From: Escherichia phage OES_C-1
Direction: 5' to 3' (one strand)
Sequence record: PQ553088
DNA: 64,000 nt
Position 1 is the first letter of the stretch. Each line of letters begins with the position of its first letter. Both the position numbers and the translations under genes were made by a program. The notes under the pieces were generated by a model. That model searched no databases. It saw only the letters and a program-made list of their open reading frames with translations, and had not been told where the DNA came from. This document shows, one piece after another, positions 21,123 to 22,462 of this stretch.

Positions 21123-21902
21123 TTAATTAAAAATATATACTTCATCAGTTCCATTCTTTTCTTTGGAATGATATATGTTAAAGACGTATTTTTTATTAAG
21201 ATGCTTAACATTATATTTTTTAGACCATTCTTTAAGAAGAGTGTTTTCCTTTCCGTGATGCTCTAAAACATTCGACAGTCCAAATTTTATTCCTCTGTCA
21301 TTTAAAGAATCTAAAAGATTTAAAAGGTCTTTTTCTTCTTCTTCTGACCAAAATTTATTATAATCAGCAACTGTTATAAGATATGGAGGGTCCACATATA
21401 CAAAATCGCCGTCTAGAATTTTGACATCTTTAAAATGCAATGAACTAAAGATTATTTTATCACAATTTTGTTTAAAGTGATTAAAGCGTTTTTCACTATT
21501 TTTGTTTATAGTTCTTTTTCCAAACGGAGTAGTAAAATTTCCTTTATCGTTTATACGAATCATATTACTAAACCCGTGAAAATGAAGAACATAAAGTAAA
21601 AGAGGATCTCTAGTTTTATTATAATCTTCACGTAATTTCAAAAACTCTTCTTTTGATGTTTTTGATAGTTTGTATTGCTTTATTACTTTTAAAACGTCAT
21701 CCCATGACACGCTAATAAGACGTTTATACATTTCAATAATTGGTTCTTGGATATCATTAGCCAATACAGGACCATCGACATTTAAAGATACTGATAAACC
21801 TCCGCAAAATAAATCCACGAATCTGTCATATTTTGGAAAGTGAGACTTAAGTTCAGGTAATAATGATTGTTTATTACCTGTATACGCAATAGCTCCTAGC
21901 AT
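21123..21902 (-). CDS. dam: DNA adenine methyltransferase Dam (259 aa)
   Basis: [35 protein letters not shown]..., DPPY catalytic motif. Confidence 0.9.
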
Positions 21903-22462
21903 TATATTCTCTCATTTATTGCAGCAAAAAACGAATTATATAATTCTTCATCATATGTATTTGATAGTAATACTAACACGTTTTGTGATTTAGCATATTC
22001 ATTAAACCTTGCTTGGATGGTTGGATTATCAGTAAATGATTCTCTTTTTGTCCATTTATTACGTGGATAATATCCGCATGGCAAAAAATCTAATATCATC
22101 AATGACACAGGGTTTTCAGTTTTTGTGTATTCTTTTAATTTCTCTTTATCTTCTAAATATATTCCAACCGAATCAATAGCTGTACCTCCACCAACTTGGT
22201 GTTTAATTTCAATTATATGCTTTTTACCGTTGCGAGAAATAACAATATCAAATCTTCTAGTACGCTTCTTAGTGGTAAAATTCGAACAAAACAAATTATT
22301 TGATTTTTCAGTATCGTCAGTTAAAACCATTTTTTCTTGATAACTAACTGAACAATCAGTGAAATATTCTTTTACTTTATTAAGTATAAAATTCTCAACT
22401 ACGGCAGATATTTTATATGAATCTCCGTTTAAAGCCATTTCATGTACAATTTTATTAATCAT
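21902..22462 (-). CDS. PD-(D/E)xK nuclease-like protein (186 aa), stop overlaps dam start (TAATG)
   Basis: Motif [21 protein letters not shown] (D-x13-E-x-K); GAGGA SD; early promoter upstream. Confidence 0.5.

Follow-up and report, generated by a model that had tools for sequence, protein, structure and literature searches.

A predicted restriction-endonuclease-like gene linked to dam in T4-like phages and its deletion from phage T4

Escherichia phage OES_C-1 (PQ553088) carries, directly upstream of its dam gene, a 186-residue open reading frame (ORF186) that an earlier reading of the bare sequence, referred to here as the original prediction, had put forward as a PD-(D/E)xK-like nuclease gene translationally coupled to that of the Dam methyltransferase. 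We describe an analysis of a 64,000 nucleotide (nt) window of this genome, a Tequatrovirus segment, and of the relatives of ORF186 in other phages. Across the Tevenvirinae a D12 methylase gene invariably accompanies ORF186 and has co-diverged with it, and the lone dam gene of phage T4 is the outcome of deletion of its partner. On balance we favour the reading that ORF186 is a compact PD-(D/E)xK nuclease of the type II restriction enzyme kind, related to DpnII, and that it forms with Dam a cassette of restriction–modification (R-M) type.

The linkage to dam is the strongest result of the analysis. A PF02086 methylase gene lies directly downstream of the ORF186 homologue in all ten contexts examined, namely the window, T2, MX01 (Dhakavirus), KPV15 (Jiaodavirus) and six metagenomic contigs, among them those encoding the two most distant proteins (32% and 29% identity). 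The arrangement spans three Tevenvirinae genera and two genome positions; in KPV15 and contig L010 the pair is found at the rII locus and not between genes 56 and 61, which indicates that the two genes move together. In seven of eight homologous pairs the stop codon overlaps the start codon or directly adjoins it, as TAATG, TAAATG or overlaps of 7, 20 or 35 nt, the sole exception being T2, owing to a 1-nt deletion. Identities to the window proteins drop in parallel, with ORF186 evolving faster than Dam. The respective values for ORF186 and Dam are 0.97 and 0.99 in T2, 0.64 and 0.76 in MX01, 0.63 and 0.70 in contig L008, 0.57 and 0.72 in L005, 0.43 and 0.63 in KPV15, 0.35 and 0.56 in L009, and 0.34 and 0.54 in L010. 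The two genes display the type II R-M trait of an adjacent, co-oriented nuclease and methylase inherited together, and the pairing originally proposed from a single phage is conserved wherever ORF186 occurs. In KPV15 the pair (2075..2602) occupies the rIIB–topoisomerase locus, and two genes upstream of it lies one annotated ‘endonuclease’, which may encode a homing endonuclease.

ORF186 is a real gene under purifying selection. It matches phrog_8706 (PHROG 8706, function unknown) end to end with an E-value of 1e-115, and tblastn locates it in 188 phage records, 154 of which cover at least 80% of the protein. For pairs with measurable dS the ratio of non-synonymous to synonymous substitution rates (dN/dS) spans 0.13–0.19; it is 0.135 against T2, from 12 synonymous and seven non-synonymous differences, and 0.19 against Dhakavirus MX01; in all pairs compared the non-synonymous proportion is far under the synonymous proportion. 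Open reading frames on the plus strand overlap the gene (e.g. 22125..22340), the conserved, PHROG-matching frame being that of ORF186. An exhaustive hidden Markov model (HMM) search of 1.8 billion representatives returned only 11 matches. The full-length ones for which context was examined belong to T4-like phages and the remainder comprise fragments, one apparent chimera and a repeat-protein artefact (P0016). Two proteins, P0008 and P0010, were dropped as apparent chimeras, the match covering only part of each. In the searches made, the family turns up only in virulent phages of the T4-like group.

The fold of ORF186 is predicted to be restriction-endonuclease-like. An AlphaFold2 model calculated from a seven-sequence alignment has a mean predicted local distance difference test (pLDDT) score of 78.6 and a predicted template modelling (pTM) score of 0.77. 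The elements run in the order α(15–33), β(38–47), β(67–77), β(80–88), α(92–113), β(119–124), α, β, α, so that the αβββαβ core of the PD-(D/E)xK superfamily is present in the model. An alignment of ten family members, drawn from three phage genera and metagenomic contigs and extending down to 29% identity, reveals strict conservation of Glu23, Asp72, Glu85, Lys87, His88, Gln89 and the segment G93-T-A-I-D-S98. In the model Glu23 is placed on the helix comprising residues 15–33, with Asp72, Glu85 and Lys87 on the strands 67–77 and 80–88, as expected for a PD-(D/E)xK enzyme. The 186-residue frame at 21902..22462 and its core motif (residues 69–89) were correctly identified at the outset and the nuclease-like assignment is supported, with no non-nuclease fold assigned. 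Conservation of the motif in homologues had been set beforehand as a test, and the three hairpin residues are invariant in ten of ten. Their original numbering, D82, E96 and K98, was in error by about ten and the correct residues are D72, E85 and K87.

Database searches give further information on the fold. Sequence searches of the Protein Data Bank (PDB), with the single sequence and with the family profile, gave no match, and a search of NCBIfam returned noise only. When the model was compared with a viral structure library only its own orthologue scored well, the others being generic endonucleases with template modelling (TM) scores below 0.46. The predicted fold also resembles the nuclease domains of Can2/Card1, McrC and Bax1.

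The sequence family that scores best is DpnII. Pfam DpnII (PF04556) is the top match of ORF186, with an E-value of 0.002 and 17.9 bits, placing residues 28–113 on positions 152–235 of the 278 in the profile; five of ten family members match this profile at E<1, the best with an E-value of 8.3e-5. The PADLOC model PDLC03548, which is a DpnII model since authentic DpnII matches it with an E-value of 8.5e-127, detects ORF186 (3.3e-5) and P0002 (2.5e-4). A shorter DpnII-related model of 205 positions, PDLC03569, gives a weak match to P0009 (0.004). The profile of the ORF186 family was then compared, using hhalign, with an alignment of 14 DpnII homologues, for which the DpnII query was 99% identical to a database protein. 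The comparison extends over 91 columns with a P-value of 5e-4, and its score of 32.8 is 6.7 standard deviations above the mean for 100 column-shuffled DpnII alignments (14.6 ± 2.7, maximum 22.0); the reversed alignment scores 16.9. On helix 1 the sequence VEN is paired with MEN, and RRFDIVI of ORF186 pairs with KRFDFVI of DpnII. The hairpin, residues 69–89, aligns to DpnII RFDFVI...IEVNFYSGGGSKLN, and IEIKHQxGGGT pairs with IEVNFYSGGGS, in the DpnII stretch YLIEVNFYSGGGSKLN.

The PDB holds no solved structure of the DpnII family and a model of DpnII was therefore prepared with AlphaFold2. The overall pLDDT is 67.6, with values mostly above 75 in the C-terminal catalytic half, and this half presents secondary-structure elements in an order identical to that in the ORF186 model. 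When the DpnII model was used to query the viral structure library, the ORF186 orthologue of MX01 came out at rank 5 (E-value 1.4e-3, TM scores 0.32/0.45). Canonical streptococcal DpnII genes also adjoin a PF02086 methylase gene. We read ORF186 as a probable distant relative, in shortened form, of the catalytic domain of DpnII. We do not file it as a member of the DpnII family, because it falls below the family threshold and departs from the full-length architecture of about 280 residues with an N-terminal helical region; only positions of approximately 150–240 of the 278–290 in the profile are matched.

The distribution of the two genes explains their appearance in the classical laboratory phages. 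The interval from dam to gene 61 matches 503 phage records, of which 145 carry it whole. The dam gene is found in 183 records; 182 Tequatrovirus-level records have ORF186, whole or as a remnant, and the per-host-genus counts for the two are essentially equal. Three states occur. About 30% of related Tequatrovirus records, including T2 and most dam-positive wild isolates, carry both genes; T4, its laboratory derivatives and a few isolates carry dam and a remnant; about 64%, for example RB51, RB32 and RB69, carry neither. In phages of this last type gene 56 is followed by a small plus-strand open reading frame and then by gene 61, with nothing between. The Tequatrovirus cassette, consisting of putative promoter, ORF186 and dam, is present or absent as a unit. 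Compared with RB51 its limits fall just past the start region of the plus-strand open reading frame and exactly at the gene 56 promoter, and the flanks were searched without finding repeats, a target duplication or transposon-like structure. ORF186 had been described as a likely accessory insertion. It does not belong to a core shared by all T-even phages, being absent from T4 and from phages of the RB51 and RB69 types; the accessory unit is the whole cassette and not ORF186 alone, and relative to T4 the difference is a deletion in T4.

That deletion, of 549 bp between CAAA microhomologies, fuses ...TTATCGCAAA directly to ACGTGTTAGTATTA... and takes the promoter-like site, the ribosome-binding site and approximately the first 160 codons of ORF186. 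Codons 159–179 persist as a remnant (tblastn, residues 159–179; T4 locus 3640..3702). In the T4 RefSeq record the space from dam to gene 61 is without an annotated gene, as the original prediction had stated. The T2 gene (3001..3546 of the T2 locus) lacks 1 nt close to its 3′ end, so that it encodes a protein of 181 residues ending ...NSFLLQ and leaves a 13-nt gap before dam. The T4 remnant contains the same 1-nt deletion, from which it follows that the T4 allele descends from a T2-like allele. Both classical laboratory phages therefore carry lesions in ORF186, whilst most wild isolates have the intact 186 codons. The 1988 GenBank record of T2 dam, M22342, already holds most of the gene, unannotated. 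A methylase without the nuclease gene occurs, in T4, but the nuclease gene without a methylase was never seen among the records found, which is the pattern of classical R-M systems.

How might such a cassette work? The original prediction had offered three candidate roles for ORF186: a restriction-like enzyme with Dam protecting its own DNA, a homing-type nuclease and a factor in competition between phages. On the reading favoured here the cassette would be expressed early from its own promoter, with the two genes translationally coupled. The product of ORF186 would be an active Mg2+-dependent nuclease, probably homodimeric like MunI. Judging from the partner methylase, its target would be GATC, or a close relative or overlapping site, and methylation by Dam would block cleavage. 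The weakest step is that ORF186 would cleave DNA unmethylated at GATC within the infected cell. The likely targets in Dam-positive enterobacteria would be incoming genomes of Dam-less T-even relatives, or of other under-methylated phages. Host Dam is not known to methylate T-even DNA, and the target step rests partly on this point. Dam itself would protect the carrier phage's own, only partly glucosylated DNA. Phages Geo, EL and BGP, which carry the ORF186 gene (99.5% identical in Geo), leave about one fifth of their hydroxymethylcytosine (hmC) unglucosylated, and glucosylation lowers Dam methylation in T4 according to a 2015 paper; taken together these observations make a self-protective role for Dam reasonable. 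The cassette would then be an inter-phage weapon as well as a selfish element. The full form of this idea, that T-even phages fight each other and that ORF186 is an hmC-tolerant, methylation-sensitive GATC nuclease which destroys the incoming genomes of Dam-less relatives, host Dam being unable to methylate their GATC sites, while Dam shields the carrier, we consider doubtful. If true, it would account for the very existence of a Dam methylase in T-even phages, for the invariable presence of ORF186 or a remnant beside dam, and for the fact that no 4-bp palindrome is as strongly depleted as GATC in the hmC-containing Tevenvirinae sampled (observed/expected ratio, O/E, 0.05–0.40), which is not so in RB49.

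Among the 4-bp palindromes of the window GATC is depleted most strongly, with 67 sites observed and 204 expected (O/E 0.33). Where both genes are present the ratio is 0.05 in MX01, 0.33 in KPV15 and 0.08–0.10 in metagenomic contigs L005–L008. Values of 0.36–0.40 are obtained for fragments of T2 (both genes), T4 (dam only) and RB51 (neither gene; 0.36). The ratio is 0.15 over 25 kb of RB69 and 1.17 over 20 kb of RB49 (Krischvirus), both of which have neither gene. The depletion tracks the Tevenvirinae sampled, not the cassette. The classical explanation, cited in the 2015 paper, is counter-selection by host MutH acting on unmethylated GATC, which would predict depletion in unmodified rather than hypermodified phages. 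The pattern would be consistent with a GATC nuclease that circulates in the T-even phages, a suggestion we hold to be rather unlikely. RB49, which has neither the cassette nor the depletion, encodes a different DNA methyltransferase among its baseplate genes (14466..15305 of the RB49 locus).

Several observations weigh against a DpnII-related nuclease in an R-M-type cassette. All DpnII matches fall short of the curated threshold, the Pfam score of 17.9 bits being under the gathering cutoff of 23; the hhalign probability is only 31%, and ORF186 is without the first 120–150 or so residues of DpnII. The Pfam family BanI scores nearly as well as DpnII on the catalytic hairpin; five of the ten family members match it, although in the window protein over only about 44 hairpin residues. 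Since T4 has lost the gene and T2 has a frameshifted C-terminus, laboratory phages can do without ORF186. No target is obvious: Dam has already methylated the DNA of enterobacterial hosts, and that of the phage itself carries hydroxymethyl groups and glucose. Viable T2 dam mutants exist, and would argue that at least the T2 allele spares its own unmethylated genome. GATC depletion was considered as evidence for the specificity of ORF186 and rejected, because RB51 and RB69, which are without the cassette, show as much depletion or more.

Other explanations must be set against the same observations. ORF186 might be a homing-type or selfish nuclease that cuts cassette-less relatives at or near the 56–61 interval, with repair copying the cassette in, as for the Seg and Mob nucleases of T4, and with Dam a passenger or a means of self-immunity. 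The clean presence/absence polymorphism between conserved genes, in which RB51, RB69 and some 64% of matching records are cassette-free, would suit such an element, as would its occurrence at two loci in different genera and the existence in T4 of a homing nuclease gene, segF, next door (the window phage is without segF). Yet a Pfam scan of ORF186 detects no GIY-YIG, HNH or LAGLIDADG domain, the fold is that of PD-(D/E)xK proteins and the nearest families are classical type II enzymes. Free-standing homing nucleases need no methylase, whereas ORF186 is never seen without one, and the flanks show neither repeats nor target duplication. We regard a homing nuclease as improbable, and note that it would not be exclusive of an R-M cassette, which can spread likewise. 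Less probable still is a methylation-directed nuclease similar to DpnI or MutH, cutting fully or hemi-methylated GATC in cytosine DNA, with Dam marking host or foreign DNA and glucosylated hmC DNA immune. Such an enzyme would have an abundant target in Dam-methylated host DNA, T-even phages are known to degrade host DNA, and coupling to a methylase that also acts on cytosine DNA (a T4 annotation note) would be explained. The similarity, however, is to DpnII, which N6-methyladenine blocks, and not to DpnI or MutH, and neither Pfam nor the model reveals a winged-helix methyl reader. A nuclease of this kind would hardly need its own methylase in Dam-positive hosts, yet ORF186 never occurs without one and it is the methylase that often persists alone.

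A non-cleaving role is conceivable, in which a domesticated restriction-enzyme fold binds DNA and tunes the targeting, processivity or expression of Dam. The tight coupling and co-divergence of the two proteins are compatible with this, and so are the missing N-terminal region of DpnII and the fact that T4 Dam works without ORF186. That said, four catalytic-type residues are invariant over deep divergence, which is seldom the case in inactive derivatives, and there is no helix-turn-helix regulatory domain; we assign this explanation little likelihood. The remaining proposal, a PD-(D/E)xK nuclease unrelated to Dam that serves recombination, repair or general degradation of cytosine DNA and is adjacent to dam by historical accident, we judge very improbable. 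It could draw on the likeness of the fold to Can2/Card1, McrC and Bax1 and on the tight packing of unrelated early genes in T-even genomes. Against it, the adjacency persists at 29–43% identity and after relocation to another locus, and the overlapping stop and start codons are conserved.

The coordinates of the features discussed are listed in Table 1. Over positions 20500–23900 the window shows 100% identity to Escherichia phages OES_C-2 and OES_C-3; for many wild T4-like isolates the figure is about 97%. Read along the minus strand, gene 61 (primase) comes first, then a gap that contains a plus-strand open reading frame of 66 residues, then ORF186, dam and gene 56 (dCTPase). The dam gene displays 96–98% DNA identity to those of T4 and T2, 96% to that of T4. 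The overlap of the ORF186 stop with the dam ATG was correctly read in the original prediction, which had also placed one early promoter at 22486..22519. A site is present inside those limits, where TTTACT-17-TATTAT scores 9/12 with an extended TG, and it fits the T4 early-promoter consensus; a promoter function is plausible from the sequence. The count of sites in the region lends no weight, however, since a generic scan of this AT-rich DNA finds promoter-like sites at chance level (18 found, 17.3 expected).

Table 1. Positions of ORF186, dam and associated features in the 64,000-nt window of phage OES_C-1.
Feature	Position	Strand	Basis or remark
Accessory cassette (promoter, ORF186 and dam), ~1.43 kb	21123..22551	-	Alignment with RB51 and RB69, both entirely without it
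dam, 259-residue D12-class N6-adenine (GATC) methyltransferase, putative cognate methylase	21123..21902	-	PF02086, E-value 9e-51
TAATG junction, translational-coupling arrangement	21900..21904	-	ORF186 TAA (21904..21902) and dam ATG (21902..21900), one base in common
ORF186, 186 residues, predicted PD-(D/E)xK restriction-endonuclease-like protein of phrog_8706	21902..22462	-	
Stretch absent from T4, 549-bp deletion between CAAA microhomologies	21982..22530	-	Three-way alignment of window, T4 and T2
Catalytic hairpin, codons 69-89, with D72, E85 and K87	22196..22258	-	GGGTAIDS (codons 92-98) follows
E23 codon, helix 1	22394..22396	-	
Shine-Dalgarno GAGG	22471..22474	-	8 nt 5′ of ORF186 ATG
Early-promoter-like site	22488..22517	-	GTTTAC (22517..22512), 17-nt spacer with TG, TATTAT (22493..22488)
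66-residue open reading frame between gene 61 and ORF186	22566..22766	+	
Gene 61, primase	22763..23791	-	Gene order

Some further features of the locus merit description. The best sigma-70-like match of the region, TGGACA-18-GATAAT (10/12; 22025..22054, minus strand), falls within ORF186, some 120 nt 5′ of the dam ATG, and within the stretch deleted from T4. This match could provide dam with a transcript of its own. On the coding strand the start region of ORF186, GATAATATAATG (22460..22471), is an 11/12 copy of that of dam, GAGAATATAATG (21900..21911). The hydrophobic 66-residue plus-strand open reading frame corresponds to phrog_2024, RB69ORF029w and RB32ORF030w; it is conserved, convergent to gene 61 and overlaps the gene 61 stop by 4 nt. 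It exists in T4 (T4 locus 3739..3939, plus strand), unannotated in the RefSeq record, and a terminator-like hairpin is located at 22600..22581. Between gene 56 and soc (20138..20544, minus strand) there are two small open reading frames of 66 and 69 residues, in the place taken in T4 by segF, a homing endonuclease gene; T2 is arranged like the window. An Rfam scan of the whole window gave no RNA family.

The resemblance of ORF186 to restriction enzymes has been flagged in passing before, in a GenBank note in which the depositor labelled the orthologue of phage Shinka ‘putative DpnII restriction endonuclease’ and in one 2026 paper. The searchable literature yielded no analysis of ORF186 and no experiment on it, and nearly all records annotate the product as ‘hypothetical’. 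The present analysis adds that linkage to dam is strict in different genera and at different loci, that the two genes are distributed in three states, that the T4 orphan dam arose by deletion and that the catalytic-type residues are conserved, and it quantifies the relationship to DpnII. The 2015 paper still calls the role of the T2 and T4 Dam methylase unknown. That role has gone unexplained for about 50 years, and the reference phage T4 hides the answer because the partner gene has been deleted. Most dam-positive wild isolates have dam in second place in a cassette of predicted nuclease and methylase, which recasts T4 Dam as an R-M-like leftover. The old question of the purpose of Dam in T-even phages thereby becomes directly testable, in the form of a Dam-sensitive nuclease hypothesis. 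Were the nuclease active, these would be rare examples of virulent, hypermodified phages with a restriction system of their own, the finding could bear on phage competition, superinfection exclusion and GATC avoidance in T-even genomes, and ORF186 could prove to be a small new GATC-type enzyme that tolerates hmC.

Comparison with known systems places ORF186 and Dam as follows. The kind is known: type II R-M gene pairs, of which other virus-borne examples exist. The likeness of ORF186 to MunI (PDB code 1d02), an EcoRI-like type IIP enzyme that recognises CAATTG, is by way of the predicted model; sequence identity is 12% with no detectable sequence homology. With the DpnII family (DpnII, MboI) ORF186 has in common the glutamate on helix 1, RFDxVI, IExK/N and GGG(S/T), and in both cases the partner methylase belongs to PF02086. 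DpnII cuts unmethylated ^GATC and is partnered by the Dam-like methylase DpnM. The differences are in size (186 residues compared with about 288), in the catalytic motif, ExK in ORF186 and ExN in DpnII, and in gene order, which is nuclease then a single methylase for ORF186 as opposed to methylase, methylase, nuclease for DpnII. With respect to the orphan Dam of T4, dam is not an orphan in the window phage, nor in about 80% of dam-positive Tequatrovirus records. The remaining parallel is the R.CviAI/M.CviAI GATC system of chloroviruses, a virus-encoded pair of a nuclease and a GATC adenine methylase. There the methylase shields the viral DNA and the nuclease attacks other DNA; chlorovirus hosts are without GATC methylation and the host DNA is the target. 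The host of OES_C-1 is, in contrast, Dam-positive and the phage DNA hypermodified, so that the likeness is that of a virus carrying a nuclease gene, here a predicted one, together with a GATC adenine methylase.

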